NCBI GenBank assembly: GCA_025449535.1
Contig: JANWJF010000001.1
Location: 219,406 to 283,405, forward strand
Direction: 5' to 3'
Length of the DNA: 64,000 bases
Source: Candidatus Saccharimonadia bacterium
GTDB taxonomy: Bacteria > Patescibacteriota > SICC01
The notes under the pieces are model-generated. The model was not told the DNA's origin, did no database searches, and saw only the letters and a list, made by a program, of their open reading frames with translations. The number at the start of each line of letters is the position of its first letter. The stretch's first letter is position 1. Made by a program: the position numbers and the translations under genes. Of the stretch, positions 6,596 to 12,172 are shown one piece after another.

Positions 6596-7384
6596 TCAAG
6601 TAGGCGTGAACAGACGCTGCGGCGTGGCGGTTTCCGGATCGAGCTGACCGCATTCATCGAAGATCTCGACTCCACCCTTCCAAAGGGTCCGGATGTGCGG
6701 AGCGACCGGGCATCCGACGATTTCCGACGGGTCAGGAGTACGGAGGCCGTCCGCGTGTACGCAGACGGATTTAGTGTAGCCGACGTACCTCCCCTGCTCG
6801 TTGCACTTGACCATCAGGTAGTCCTGTCGATGCAGCGCGAGAACGGTAACGCGTTCCAAGGATTGGTCCAATAGGGTCTCGGAAGCGAATCTCGTGGCTA
6901 TGTCATCGCTACGTTCGACGGCCGGTCGGACCGGGTCGTCGGGATCATCCTCGATCAGCGTATCCCGAACGGCGCACATCAGGCGGAACACGTCACCTGA
7001 CGCATGTCGAAGATAATGCTCGATGCGATTACGAACGAACGCCACCGTATCCGAAGTCACTTCCTCCGCGGAACCTGCAGCAACCAGTTGTCGCCTCTTC
7101 AGGTCGACCCCCGCTAAGGCCATCCCATGCAGTTCAGTATCGCCGCTGAAGATATCCAGCATCAGTTTCCGACCGCGTGCCTCGCGCGCACTCCACTGAA
7201 GCTCGAGAGACGCGTCTAGTTCCGGATCGAAGCCTGCCCAGTCTGACTGGGTGCGGTTGGCCGCTCGGAACAGATGCGCGTAGAAGTCTTGTTCATGTTG
7301 ATAGAACCGTTCCTTAGCCTCTCGCGCGGCCTCATCAAATACGGGTTCTTCCCGTGGCACATCCGATTGACTGACTTTTCCCAT
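6596..7384 (-). CDS. Hypothetical protein (262 aa)
   Basis: Long ORF with coding-like composition; no recognised motif. Confidence 0.5.
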   Translation of the reverse strand: MGKVSQSDVPREEPVFDEAAREAKERFYQHEQDFYAHLFRAANRTQSDWAGFDPELDASLELQWSAREARGRKLMLDIFSGDTELHGMALAGVDLKRRQLVAAGSAEEVTSDTVAFVRNRIEHYLRHASGDVFRLMCAVRDTLIEDDPDDPVRPAVERSDDIATRFASETLLDQSLERVTVLALHRQDYLMVKCNEQGRYVGYTKSVCVHADGLRTPDPSEIVGCPVAPHIRTLWKGGVEIFDECGQLDPETATPQRLFTPT

Positions 7385-7531
7385 GACTATGCATAATACT
7401 GTAACCTAGCGTATAAAGAGAAGTCGTCCCTTTACATGCGCTTGGCTTCCAGGAGGGCCGCCGCGAGCCGTACCCAATCGTGGCTTTTTTCTGGAAACCA
7501 ACCCATCAATCCCCGAGGAAAGGATGTACCG

Positions 7532-7999
7532 ATGCGCCTTCTGGGTATCGTATTGCTCGTCCTCTTGGCTCTCTGCTTTAGCAAAGGCCAATTCGCATCC
7601 GCCGGAAGCAGCACCCCGTCGGTCGTCGGTATCGAGGACATCGAAGACCAAACCGGCAAGTGGATCTGCCTATCCAACATGGACGACCTGGGAGAACTCT
7701 GGTTCCAGGGCGTGGACCACCCCGTCCTGAAAGTCGACTATTTCGCCGAAGAAGGCCAGTGCAAGCGACTCAACCCACAGCGGGCCAGCGTCGTGAAGGT
7801 AACGAACTACTACTTCGGCGTAGCCTGGGGCATCGGCCTCTACTACAACGGACAGCTGACCTGGCAGGACGTCCAAGGCGTGGCTGGAGACGTTGGCGCC
7901 CTGAACAATGCCTGGTTCGGCTATGAAGTCGTGCACCGCCAGACATTCGACAAATACGGCTACCCAAGGAAAACCTGGACCGTCGAGGTCCCCGAATAG
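7532..7999 (+). CDS. Small secreted protein (signal peptide)
   Basis: Start trimmed to MRLLGIVLLVLLALCFSKGQFASA (hydrophobic signal sequence). The next two genes follow with 14-nt gaps. Confidence 0.5.
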   Translation: MRLLGIVLLVLLALCFSKGQFASAGSSTPSVVGIEDIEDQTGKWICLSNMDDLGELWFQGVDHPVLKVDYFAEEGQCKRLNPQRASVVKVTNYYFGVAWGIGLYYNGQLTWQDVQGVAGDVGALNNAWFGYEVVHRQTFDKYGYPRKTWTVEVPE

Positions 8000-8013
8000 G
8001 AAGGAGTGCCGTC

Positions 8014-8403
8014 ATGGCGCTAACTTTTAATGACGACGTGGTTATCGTCGTGAGTCCGCAGACCGGGCAGCACTTCGTCGTCTCGTTCAGTAAAACCTCG
8101 GTTCATCGAGAGACCGCCAAGGCCGAACAGCTCCCGATCGACCGGGTGCGCGAGTACTTGGGGCAAATCGTCGACATCGCGATGCACAAGGACGCGCCGT
8201 ACGCGTACCGGACGGTCAAAGGGCTCGCCAAGGAGCTGGACCTGCCCGCCGCCATCGTCAAACACTGTCTCGAACAATCCGACAAGGTACGCGTCTCGCC
8301 ACTGCAGAACAAGCAGGGCGAAACACTCTACTGCCGGGCCGACCGTCCGCTCGACTTCAAGGAGCGGCTCGAGCGATTCCGGATAGCCCTGGGACGCAAC
8401 TGA
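8014..8403 (+). CDS. Hypothetical protein with an HTH-like segment (129 aa)
   Basis: YRTVKGLAKELDLPAAIVKHCLEQ resembles a helix-turn-helix. Confidence 0.45.
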   Translation: MALTFNDDVVIVVSPQTGQHFVVSFSKTSVHRETAKAEQLPIDRVREYLGQIVDIAMHKDAPYAYRTVKGLAKELDLPAAIVKHCLEQSDKVRVSPLQNKQGETLYCRADRPLDFKERLERFRIALGRN

Positions 8404-8417
8404 AAAGGAGGTCGCCT

Positions 8418-8825
8418 ATGCGCGACATGCGGAAAGAGGACCCGGTCCTCAGGTCCGGAAACCGTTGGCGCAGGCTGCCAACCGTCCAAGTACCCGGCGA
8501 CCCCGAGGCGTTGCCCTGGGATCTGGGGAAACGCTCGGAGCAGGACATCCGGGACTCATGGCGGAAAGTCGCCGTCTTCCACGTCAGCCGGGTCGGTGGC
8601 CGAGGCGATGATCCGGTCAGATTCACGATCGGATTCCGGAATAGCTCCGGTGAGATCCACCGGCTCGGCTTTCTGATCATGGACCGGGAGTTCGGCATGG
8701 AAGTGGGTCACGAGGACGTCGAATTCGTCATCTTCGCTGGCAACCCCCTGGACGAGCTCAACCTCGTCCTCGTCGACGTCGTCGATAAGGACAATCCGGC
8801 CTGGAAACACCTACCGCTCTATTGA
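8418..8825 (+). CDS. Hypothetical protein (135 aa)
   Basis: ORF in an apparent operon with the two preceding genes. Confidence 0.45.
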   Translation: MRDMRKEDPVLRSGNRWRRLPTVQVPGDPEALPWDLGKRSEQDIRDSWRKVAVFHVSRVGGRGDDPVRFTIGFRNSSGEIHRLGFLIMDREFGMEVGHEDVEFVIFAGNPLDELNLVLVDVVDKDNPAWKHLPLY

Positions 8826-8953
8826 GCAAGGGGCAGGACCGCGACTTCGTGCATACCAGCACGCAAGAAGCACCTGTCCCGCCCCCTGAGACCGTCTCGA
8901 ACGAGGCGTCCTGAGGAGGCATTACTGACTACGGTGAACAAAAAACCGATGTT

Positions 8954-10777
8954 ATGGTATTTTTTATGGTCACCATGGTACAGAAGACCACACATCGAGA
9001 TACGCCCGGATCCGGAGAGCCTGGTCCGGAACGCACGGTCGAAGCGGGTCCAGATACGGAGCCCGGGGACGTCCTCGAACGGGTCGCGTGGTACTTCTCC
9101 GCCCCGATGGACCGGTTGCTCAGCCCCGAGAAGAGTCCCCGCCTGTCGGAAATCCGCGGATTGACGGCCGTGCTGCTGTACGACCACACGCCGCTCGAGC
9201 GCGGCGACATCGCGGAGTTCCTGGATCGCGCCGAGAACTACCTCTCCGAACTGATCGCCCGCACCCGGCGACAGTTGGGCGGGAGCGCGGAGTGGCGCGG
9301 CTTCTACGCCGACCTAACCGCCGAGACTCCGCCCGAGCTGTCCCTGTTGGACCAGTACCTGGCCGGATTCTGCCACGCATACGACGTGCCGCCGGACGTC
9401 ATCACTCAGCTAAATCCGAAGGACTTTATCAAGGAAGCACGCCAGGGATTGATCTACCGCCTGCAAGAGGAGACTCCCATCCCCCTGCAAGCATTGGCCG
9501 AGCGCTTCGGTTTCGGTGTTGAGAGGACCACGCTCGTCGAAACCCGTTACAGCGCGGAAGAGATATTCGCCCAGGACCCGGAAGCCTTGAGACGGATCAT
9601 GGCGATCGAACGGAGCGCCCGTTTACCCGCGGAGTCGCGTCCAGCCCGGAAAGTGGTAGACGGCATCCTGCAGGAAGCGGGCGCCGCCTGGGCGGATCTC
9701 CAAAGCCCCCGCCGCGGCCGGGAGTTGCTCCAGGCCCGCCGCCGGATCGTCAGACAGCTGTACTTCCGGAGTCCGATGGCGCCGCAGGAGATCGCGGAGA
9801 TCTTGCATCGTACGCCAGAACACGTCAGTCAGATCGCGAAGGAGATGGAGGCCTCCGAGGGCGACGATCCCGTGGTCGTCAAACCGGAACGCGTCTACGA
9901 GCGCGAATCGGAGCGGGTCTCACTGTTCTTCGGCATGCCGGTCGCCGGATATGAGAAGGACAGCGGCCCGCACCTGGCCCTGTTGCAGGTGCTGACTGAC
10001 CGGGGATTGACCGTGACGGAAATCGCAAGATGTGGCGGCGCCAACCGGACCCGGGTCCCCCAGTTCCTCGCAAGGTCGGCACGCCGCCGGAGCGAGGATC
10101 CGTTCTTTCGGCAGCTGGTCGAGGCCGTGGACGCCGGCGTGGAGCCGCCCGGCGGGAACGGCCTGATCGAAGCAGTGCTGGAAGCCAGCGCCAATCTGGC
10201 GGGGACAACCGTGGAAACGCTGCACCGGCATCCCAAGCAGGCGGAAGGAAGCGTTGCCCGAGACTGGGCCGCTTACCTGCTTCGGAAACGCGTCGGACTC
10301 AAGACACGTCACGTCCAAGAGCACGCCGGCCTGCCCTCCCCGAACCGGATACGGAAAGGAGTCGAGCGAGTATCGGAAGAAATTGCCCGTTCGGAAGAGG
10401 CGGCCGCCTTGGAACGGTTCGTTTGGCGGTGCCTGCTGGGGAACCACCTGGCTCCCGAGCAAGGCGACGCCGTGTTGTACTTCGCCCACGGATTGAACAG
10501 GCAGGTCCGGGTCGGCAGGGTCAAGGAAGTCCACGAAGAGGCAGAGGGGCGGCTGCTCATCATCAACGGGCACCGGCACCACGCGAAACATACGGCGTTC
10601 GCAGGCGATCCGAGCGTCCTGGATGCCGAAGCGGCGGCCGTGGTCATGCGGGAGCCGAACGCGCTCGATCTCTGGCTGACCAGCCATCGGGTCGGACCGT
10701 CGTTGGGGGAGCAGATGCGACAGGCGTTGCGGCGTGAACCCGTGCCTGGCAACGGTAATGCCTTGACCTCTGGCTGA
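8954..10777 (+). CDS. Large protein with about five degenerate DnaA-C-terminal-like HTH repeats (607 aa)
   Basis: Five segments read as DnaA domain-IV-like helix-turn-helix repeats: RLSEIRGLTAVLLYDHTPLERGDIAEFLDRAENYLSELIAR; PLQALAERFGFGVERTTLVETRY; RRIVRQLYFRSPMAPQEIAEILHRTPEHVSQIAKE; LALLQVLTDRGLTVTEIARCGGANRTRVPQF; ARDWAAYLLRKRVGLKTRHVQEHAGLPSPNRIRKGVERV. Start uncertain among four clustered Mets. Confidence 0.5.
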   Translation: MVFFMVTMVQKTTHRDTPGSGEPGPERTVEAGPDTEPGDVLERVAWYFSAPMDRLLSPEKSPRLSEIRGLTAVLLYDHTPLERGDIAEFLDRAENYLSELIARTRRQLGGSAEWRGFYADLTAETPPELSLLDQYLAGFCHAYDVPPDVITQLNPKDFIKEARQGLIYRLQEETPIPLQALAERFGFGVERTTLVETRYSAEEIFAQDPEALRRIMAIERSARLPAESRPARKVVDGILQEAGAAWADLQSPRRGRELLQARRRIVRQLYFRSPMAPQEIAEILHRTPEHVSQIAKEMEASEGDDPVVVKPERVYERESERVSLFFGMPVAGYEKDSGPHLALLQVLTDRGLTVTEIARCGGANRTRVPQFLARSARRRSEDPFFRQLVEAVDAGVEPPGGNGLIEAVLEASANLAGTTVETLHRHPKQAEGSVARDWAAYLLRKRVGLKTRHVQEHAGLPSPNRIRKGVERVSEEIARSEEAAALERFVWRCLLGNHLAPEQGDAVLYFAHGLNRQVRVGRVKEVHEEAEGRLLIINGHRHHAKHTAFAGDPSVLDAEAAAVVMREPNALDLWLTSHRVGPSLGEQMRQALRREPVPGNGNALTSG

Positions 10778-10879: not shown

Positions 10880-12172
10880 ATGGCAAATCCCAACGCACGG
10901 GCCGCGCGAGGGCGCGGCGGACAATTCAACAAAGGCAACGGCCAACGGCGCAAGGCCGGCGGCAATGCCCGTAACTTCGGCAGCCAGGCGTATGGCAACA
11001 AGAGCCTCGGCGGACGCGGCGGCGGCACCCAGCGGCAGCGCAGCCGTGGACCGGCCAAGTCGACGATCGACCCCTCCCGGTTCGTGAACCGCGCCACTTC
11101 CCCGCGCGATATCCTGCCCTACACCCCGCGCCGGCAGTTCAAGAACTTCGCGTTCGACCCACGCATGCACCGGGCGATCACTTCCAAGGGCTATACCGCC
11201 CCGACCGCGATCCAGGACCAAGCGATCCCGCACATCCTGGCCGGCCACGACGTAGTCGGCATCGCCAATACCGGCACCGGCAAGACGGCGGGCTTCGTGC
11301 TCCCGATCATCAACCGGCTGATTCCCCGCCGGGACGGCATGGCCCTGGTCGTCGCGCCGACCCGCGAGCTGGCCCAGCAGATCGATGAGGAGTTCCGCAG
11401 CTTCGCGGACCGGCTCGACCTGCTCTCCACCGTCTGCGTCGGCGGCATGAACGAGCGGCCCCAGATCAAGTCGCTGAAGCGCAATCCGCAGATGGTCATC
11501 GGTACGCCGGGCCGGCTGAAGGACTTCGTGACCAACAAGCACCTCGACCTGAAGCGCTGCCACACCTTCGTGCTCGACGAGGCCGACCGGATGCTCGACA
11601 TGGGCTTCATCAACGACATGAAGTTCCTGATGCGGTACCTGCCGGAAGAGCGGCAGTCGCTCTGCTTCTCCGCGACGATCACGCCCGAGGTGAAGAAGAT
11701 CATCGACGCCCTGCTCGACGAGCCGGTGACGGTCTCCGTCCGCACCACCGAGACCCAGGAGCACATCGAACAGGACGTGATCCGGGCGGACACCGCGGCC
11801 GAGAAGCTGGCGCACCTGGAGAAGCTGCTGGTGAAGCCGGAGTTCTCCAAGGTGGTGATCTTCGGGCAGACTAAGCACGGCGTGCAGCGGTTGTCCGACA
11901 AGCTGTCCAAGCGGAACATCTCCGTGACGACGATCCACGGCAACAAGAACCAGAACCAGCGCCGCCGGGCGTTGTCCGCGTTCAAGAGCGGTCCGGTGAA
12001 GGTCCTGGTGGCGACCGACGTGGCCGCGCGCGGGCTGGACATCCGGAACGTCAGCCACGTGATCAACTACGATCCCCCGCAGGCCTACGACGACTACATC
12101 CATCGCATCGGCCGGACCGGCCGTGCCGGCAAGACCGGCTCCGCGATCACCTTCGTACCGACGAAGGCGTAG
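10880..12172 (+). CDS. DEAD-box ATP-dependent RNA helicase with an N-terminal Gly/Arg-rich (RGG-like) extension
   Basis: Q-motif region, GTGKT, PTRELAQQ, DEAD, SAT, HRIGRTGRAG. Confidence 0.9.
   Translation: MANPNARAARGRGGQFNKGNGQRRKAGGNARNFGSQAYGNKSLGGRGGGTQRQRSRGPAKSTIDPSRFVNRATSPRDILPYTPRRQFKNFAFDPRMHRAITSKGYTAPTAIQDQAIPHILAGHDVVGIANTGTGKTAGFVLPIINRLIPRRDGMALVVAPTRELAQQIDEEFRSFADRLDLLSTVCVGGMNERPQIKSLKRNPQMVIGTPGRLKDFVTNKHLDLKRCHTFVLDEADRMLDMGFINDMKFLMRYLPEERQSLCFSATITPEVKKIIDALLDEPVTVSVRTTETQEHIEQDVIRADTAAEKLAHLEKLLVKPEFSKVVIFGQTKHGVQRLSDKLSKRNISVTTIHGNKNQNQRRRALSAFKSGPVKVLVATDVAARGLDIRNVSHVINYDPPQAYDDYIHRIGRTGRAGKTGSAITFVPTKA

Follow-up and report, generated by a model that had tools for sequence, protein, structure and literature searches.

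What kind of factor carries five DnaA domain IV-like modules in one polypeptide, and does it act with the genes around it? The question is raised by a 607-aa protein of an uncultured Patescibacteria (CPR) bacterium with a genome of about 0.8 Mb, encoded in a 64-kb stretch of DNA that was analysed as a whole (the window). Its ORF (8954..10777, plus strand; NCBI VIF43_00435) lies in a chromosomal housekeeping neighbourhood and is annotated elsewhere with products of 603 aa (NCBI) and 556 aa (JGI). The start at 8954 is supported by alignment of the homologue N-termini (MVFFMVTM / MVFSLAMG / MLFLAVMQ), while the JGI start, which corresponds to Met52, removes the first helix of repeat 1. With a pI of 6.1 and a net charge of −9, the protein is acidic overall; a disordered N-terminus of about 36 residues precedes the five modules, which are separated by linkers of about 5–10 residues, and a C-terminal domain follows.

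The initial annotation had read five successive helix-turn-helix (HTH) segments of DnaA domain IV type in this protein, a reading upheld far above chance by profile–profile P values, a pooled profile and the helix pattern. All five are encoded on the plus strand. Repeat 1 (aa 37–121; 9062..9316) scores 17.4 bits against Bac_DnaA_C when scanned alone, and through it the family profile matches Aquifex DnaA domain IV (E=0.0016); its model has six helices, the first two (aa 37–55) and the following loop being at low confidence. Repeat 2 (aa 129–218; 9338..9607; 14.9 bits alone, pLDDT 73–89) is the most conserved module (LDQYLAGFC...ETPIP) and accounts for more of the family's invariant alignment columns than any other part. 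Repeat 3 (aa 229–306; 9638..9871) is DnaA-IV-like without helix 6, is modelled with five helices (pLDDT 72–90) and matches repeat 1 in profile–profile comparison (94 % probability); alone it finds only generic HTH matches (HTH_Crp_2, MarR, Sigma70_r4) at about 19 bits. Likewise, repeat 4 (aa 312–392; 9887..10129; pLDDT 77–88), which is DnaA-IV-like without the basic loop, matches repeat 1 at 93 % probability. Repeat 5 (aa 402–490; 10157..10423; 15.0 bits against Bac_DnaA_C alone) is tied only weakly to repeats 1–4 by hhalign, but it has the same six-helix pattern (pLDDT 73–90) and aligns in register.

Profiles built from orthologues connect repeat 1 with repeats 2, 3 and 4 at P values of 8e-6, 1e-7 and 4e-7, respectively. 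The 20 repeat units of the four orthologues align nearly gap-free, Bac_DnaA_C being their commonest Pfam match (8 of 20). Searched against the PDB, the profile pooled from them retrieves DNA-binding domains of DnaA (E=9.3e-9 and 6e-7). Foldseek gave target-normalised TM scores of 0.79–0.82 to two DNA-bound structures of the DnaA DNA-binding domain. One helix pattern is common to all five repeats in the model (pLDDT 70–90), in which the geometry between repeats is unreliable (pTM 0.38); the elements found are those of the DnaA-IV fold, namely helix 1, a short helix, the basic loop, a long helix 3, the HTH and a C-terminal helix. The whole protein scores 40.5 bits against Bac_DnaA_C (PF08299; gathering cutoff 31.5), no single repeat reaches the Pfam cutoff, and repeats 3 and 4 have no DnaA_C match when scanned alone. 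Membership by sequence thus holds at the level of the whole protein, since the 40.5 bits are the sum of weak repeats. Identity is 8–23 % from repeat to repeat and 30–45 % between orthologous positions, and, judged by sequence, the modules are anciently diverged, non-identical copies of DnaA domain IV. The domain composition of the protein and its DnaA-IV fold can be regarded as established.

A distinct non-repeat C-terminal domain, also recognized in the initial annotation, occupies aa 491–607 (10424..10774, plus strand); as a control, its profile was compared with the repeat profiles and matched none of them. From the structure model, with five strands and three helices, it is predicted to be a Tudor/SH3-like barrel with a three-helix tail. 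Among the barrel matches are the Tudor domains with which bacterial PcrA/UvrD and CarD bind RNA polymerase; RNA-binding barrels of the KOW and ribosomal L19/eS4 types are similar as well.

The architecture had been called unusual, and the searches agree. An exhaustive search of 1.84 billion representatives returned four family members, the window protein and three homologues, and no description of tandem DnaA-IV arrays was found in the literature searched. The combination of five DnaA-IV modules with a predicted small barrel is rare and undescribed.

All five ORFs of the proposed cluster exist as first described, including two 14-nt gaps and one 128-nt gap. A 262-aa orphan (VIF43_00455; 6596..7384, minus strand) is followed on the plus strand by an operon of three orphans with products of 155 aa (7532..7999), 129 aa (8014..8403) and 135 aa (8418..8825), both 14-nt gaps of which contain Shine–Dalgarno-like sequences (GAAGGAG ahead of the second gene, AAAGGAGG ahead of the third). 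The first product, noted previously as a secreted protein of 156 aa, does appear by inspection to have a signal peptide (N-terminus MRLLGIVLLVLLALCFSKGQFASA|GSS), but is 155 aa long when read from its ATG. The 128-nt gap ahead of the 607-aa gene is real, whereas its description as AT-rich was overstated (58.6 % GC against 64.5 % for the window). GC3 is 0.77–0.79 in the four plus-strand genes versus 0.64 in the 262-aa gene. All four smaller proteins are annotated as hypothetical, form singleton clusters and have no matches in Pfam, NCBIfam, PHROGs, PADLOC or PDB sequences; the HTH-like segment attributed to the 129-aa protein found no counterpart in the Pfam, NCBIfam, PHROGs and PDB sequence searches. 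PADLOC returned no defence-system match for the five proteins and nearby orphans, and only generic helicase matches for the DEAD-box protein encoded downstream (10880..12172, plus strand; Pfam DEAD and Helicase_C).

Could the 607-aa protein read DNA as DnaA does? The paper on 1J1V is reportedly a further source for the residues with which DnaA contacts its box. Here, the box-reading residues and the contact elements (the loop and the start of the recognition helix) follow PMC5742627. Domain IV of E. coli and of M. tuberculosis (taken from the PDB profile search) were aligned with the 20 units by hmmalign. Positions aligned with R399, D433, H434, T435 and H439 are unconserved in every repeat and vary between repeats and orthologues. 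The position of R407 is R or K in 15 of the 16 units of repeats 1, 2, 3 and 5; repeat 2 keeps an ‘ARQ’ aligned with P406-R407-Q408, and the basic loop residues R63 (repeat 1) and K156 (repeat 2) are invariant. Repeat 4 has an 8-residue deletion at the site of the basic loop in all four orthologues and P-H in place of the conserved Arg, and repeat 1 is net acidic in all four. The modules had been called readers of the DnaA-box type, a description that fits neither the unconserved R399- and D433–H439-aligned positions nor the loss of the loop in repeat 4. Across the four sequences on which the conservation statistics rest, identity is lowest in the turn before the recognition helix (0.07) and in that helix itself (0.18), helices 1 and 3 reach 0.44–0.50, and in repeat 2 helix 1 and the ETPIP turn reach 0.81 and 0.88. 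Low conservation of the recognition helix would be explained equally well by relaxed constraint on a disused DNA-binding surface.

The search for a DNA target covered the 64 kb of the window out of the genome of about 0.8 Mb. Within it there are no DnaA-box clusters, tandem DNA repeat arrays or enriched words; TTATCCACA with at most one mismatch occurs twice (3.3 expected), the sites being unclustered. The window also contains no dnaA gene and no other DnaA-IV domain. The protein is not DnaA and, as far as its residues and the window show, does not read DnaA boxes.

Our leading reading, tentative and at a little under even chances, makes the 607-aa protein a lineage-specific Patescibacteria (CPR) factor that reads a long composite DNA site with several HTHs in a single chain. 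The five modules would act together on double-stranded DNA, the loop and recognition helix of each touching a sub-site that differs from those of the others. Jointly they would span several tens of base pairs, not a row of identical DnaA boxes, their covalent linkage taking the place of the AAA+-driven oligomerisation by which DnaA fills adjacent boxes. The predicted C-terminal barrel may serve as a docking site for a nucleic acid or for a protein partner such as RNA polymerase, and the outcome would be a regulator or organiser of one specific chromosomal locus. Fold and homology, the partly kept contact scaffold, the DNA-linked distant relatives and the Tudor-type barrel matches speak for such a reader; the lack of a target in the window, the acidity of the protein, the loop loss in repeat 4 and the variable recognition helix speak against it.

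The latter features are also what would be expected if the modules had lost DNA binding and become a rigid helical platform for protein–protein contacts, with conserved surfaces, especially repeat 2 from helix 1 to the ETPIP turn, as the functional sites. This is rather unlikely, yet deserves consideration: besides the window being devoid of a candidate target and the chain (repeat 1 in every orthologue) being acidic, DnaA base-contact residues are missing from all repeats, repeat 4 has no basic loop, and the recognition helix and its preceding turn have diverged most while helices 1 and 3 and the repeat 2 turn have diverged least. However, helices 1 and 3 consist largely of core positions, so that their conservation may be purely structural; the complete DnaA-IV fold has been kept five times despite at least 60 % sequence divergence, an R407-equivalent Arg is retained in four of the five repeats, and related arrays are found in DNA-handling contexts. 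A reader of DnaA-box-like arrays at an origin- or partition-like site, as proposed initially, or a protein competing with DnaA for these boxes would profit from the same true homology to domain IV, and five linked modules would fit closely spaced origin boxes. It is nevertheless highly improbable: with residues at the DnaA contact positions that change from repeat to repeat, the protein would not be expected to bind five identical boxes, and the window offers neither an excess nor a cluster of the boxes, nor DNA repeat arrays, nor dnaA.

Two further explanations draw on the neighbouring genes. A DEAD-box helicase is the only recurring neighbour, with a 70 %-identical one directly downstream of the homologue P0004 in locus L004, although the family proteins of the two loci share only 32 % identity. 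Together with the KOW- and L19/eS4-like features of the barrel, this could point to an RNA-binding or RNP-assembly factor that partners the helicase, modules and barrel both binding RNA. Such a role is improbable, as the helicase gene has its own conserved promoter and leader, a terminator-like hairpin separates it from the 607-aa gene, no helicase lies downstream of the homologue in L002 or L003, and the synteny may be mere inherited gene order in one lineage. DnaA domain IV is not known to bind RNA. A single conserved functional system made up of all five genes (262, 155, 129, 135 and 607 aa), as first suggested, has barely any probability. Proximity, the tight packing of the three small plus-strand genes with their Shine–Dalgarno sequences and the absence of a predicted terminator between 8825 and 8954 are in its favour, but tblastn and phmmer found no relatives of the four neighbours, all singleton hypotheticals devoid of database matches, in the three homologue loci (L002–L004). 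There the upstream position is occupied by different genes, and the 135-aa gene is upstream of none of the three; the cluster is thus not conserved as a unit, as far as contigs of only 3.1–3.8 kb allow comparison. The genes upstream are four orphans unrelated to the 607-aa gene and, as far as these contigs show, are not a conserved system; nothing ties the adjacent 262-aa gene to that gene.

A few distant proteins with 5–12 DnaA-IV units also emerged from the search of the 1.84 billion representatives; their Bac_DnaA_C scores are 101–265 bits, compared with 40.5 in the window protein. Two of them, P0006 (12 units) and P0009 (7 units), are fusions with a Y1 transposase (Y1_Tnp present in both), and one distant array protein is surrounded by primase, RecD-like helicase and integrase genes. 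Variability in the transposase-linked arrays is highest at the loop (2.4 bits) and the first eight residues of the recognition helix (2.7 bits), and is 0.7–1.4 bits elsewhere, the scaffold being conserved. These peaks fall on the two elements that DnaA uses for DNA contact. The distant relatives, with their strong Bac_DnaA_C scores and with fusions to transposases, enzymes that act on DNA, were counted in favour of a reading function. Poly-DnaA-IV arrays might even constitute an unrecognized class in the manner of zinc fingers or TALEs, with a conserved scaffold, hypervariable contact elements and a sub-site of about 9 bp per unit, which Y1 transposases, an integrative element and a CPR chromosomal factor (here a five-module reader of about 45–55 bp with a Tudor-like docking domain) would each have recruited on their own; this is a speculative and, as a whole, unlikely proposition.

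DnaA domain IV is among the best-understood DNA-reading modules of bacteria and is known almost only as the single copy that ends DnaA, which fills neighbouring sites by ATP-driven oligomerisation. Chains of five modules, or of up to twelve as in the distant relatives, would read long sites in a different way. Should the modules bind DNA, a recognition code for the DnaA-IV fold could emerge once arrays are matched with their targets. In the CPR, with genomes of about 0.8 Mb, the protein would join the very few candidates for lineage-specific DNA-binding factors. If the modules have ceased to bind DNA, the 607-aa protein is a rare orphan made from a recycled fold.

Compared with DnaA itself (domain IV, PF08299; PDB 1J1V, 3PVP), the window protein has five copies of domain IV per chain instead of one, has neither the AAA+ domain III nor domains I–II, and keeps neither the box-reading residues nor, in repeat 4, the basic loop. 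Assignment to the DnaA replication initiator (TIGR00362) was rejected, with an NCBIfam DnaA score of 11.7 bits (cutoff 343.9) and no AAA+ match. The Y1 transposases of subclass 2.1 (TnpA_REP/TIRYT-like) likewise use a DnaA-IV-type HTH outside DnaA; their C-terminal region is similar to Bac_DnaA_C or HTH_23/HTH_28, and tandem arrays are not mentioned (PMC6006769). The window protein has no Y1_Tnp (PF01797) match, carries the predicted Tudor/SH3-like domain at its C-terminus instead and, in contrast to these transposases, lies in a housekeeping neighbourhood; a Y1 transposase with DnaA_C was accordingly rejected. P0007, P0008, P0010 and P0011, uncharacterised metagenomic proteins 22–27 % identical to it, also have tandem DnaA-IV units (5–9 per chain, period about 95–108 residues). 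Their gene contexts differ, and they do not possess a long non-repeat C-terminal extension like its domain of about 115 residues, as no more than about 25 residues follow their last unit. The sigma-70 family was rejected as well (no Sigma70_r2; r4-type matches on repeat 3 of 14.7–18.8 bits, cutoff 24.1; Foldseek TM 0.07–0.16). Weak matches link repeats 3 and 4 to Sigma70_r4 and MarR, and the pooled repeat profile to CENP-B. With single-chain multi-HTH readers such as sigma-70 (regions 2–4), Myb R1R2R3 and paired/CENP-B-type proteins, the window protein would share the concept of reading adjacent sub-sites.

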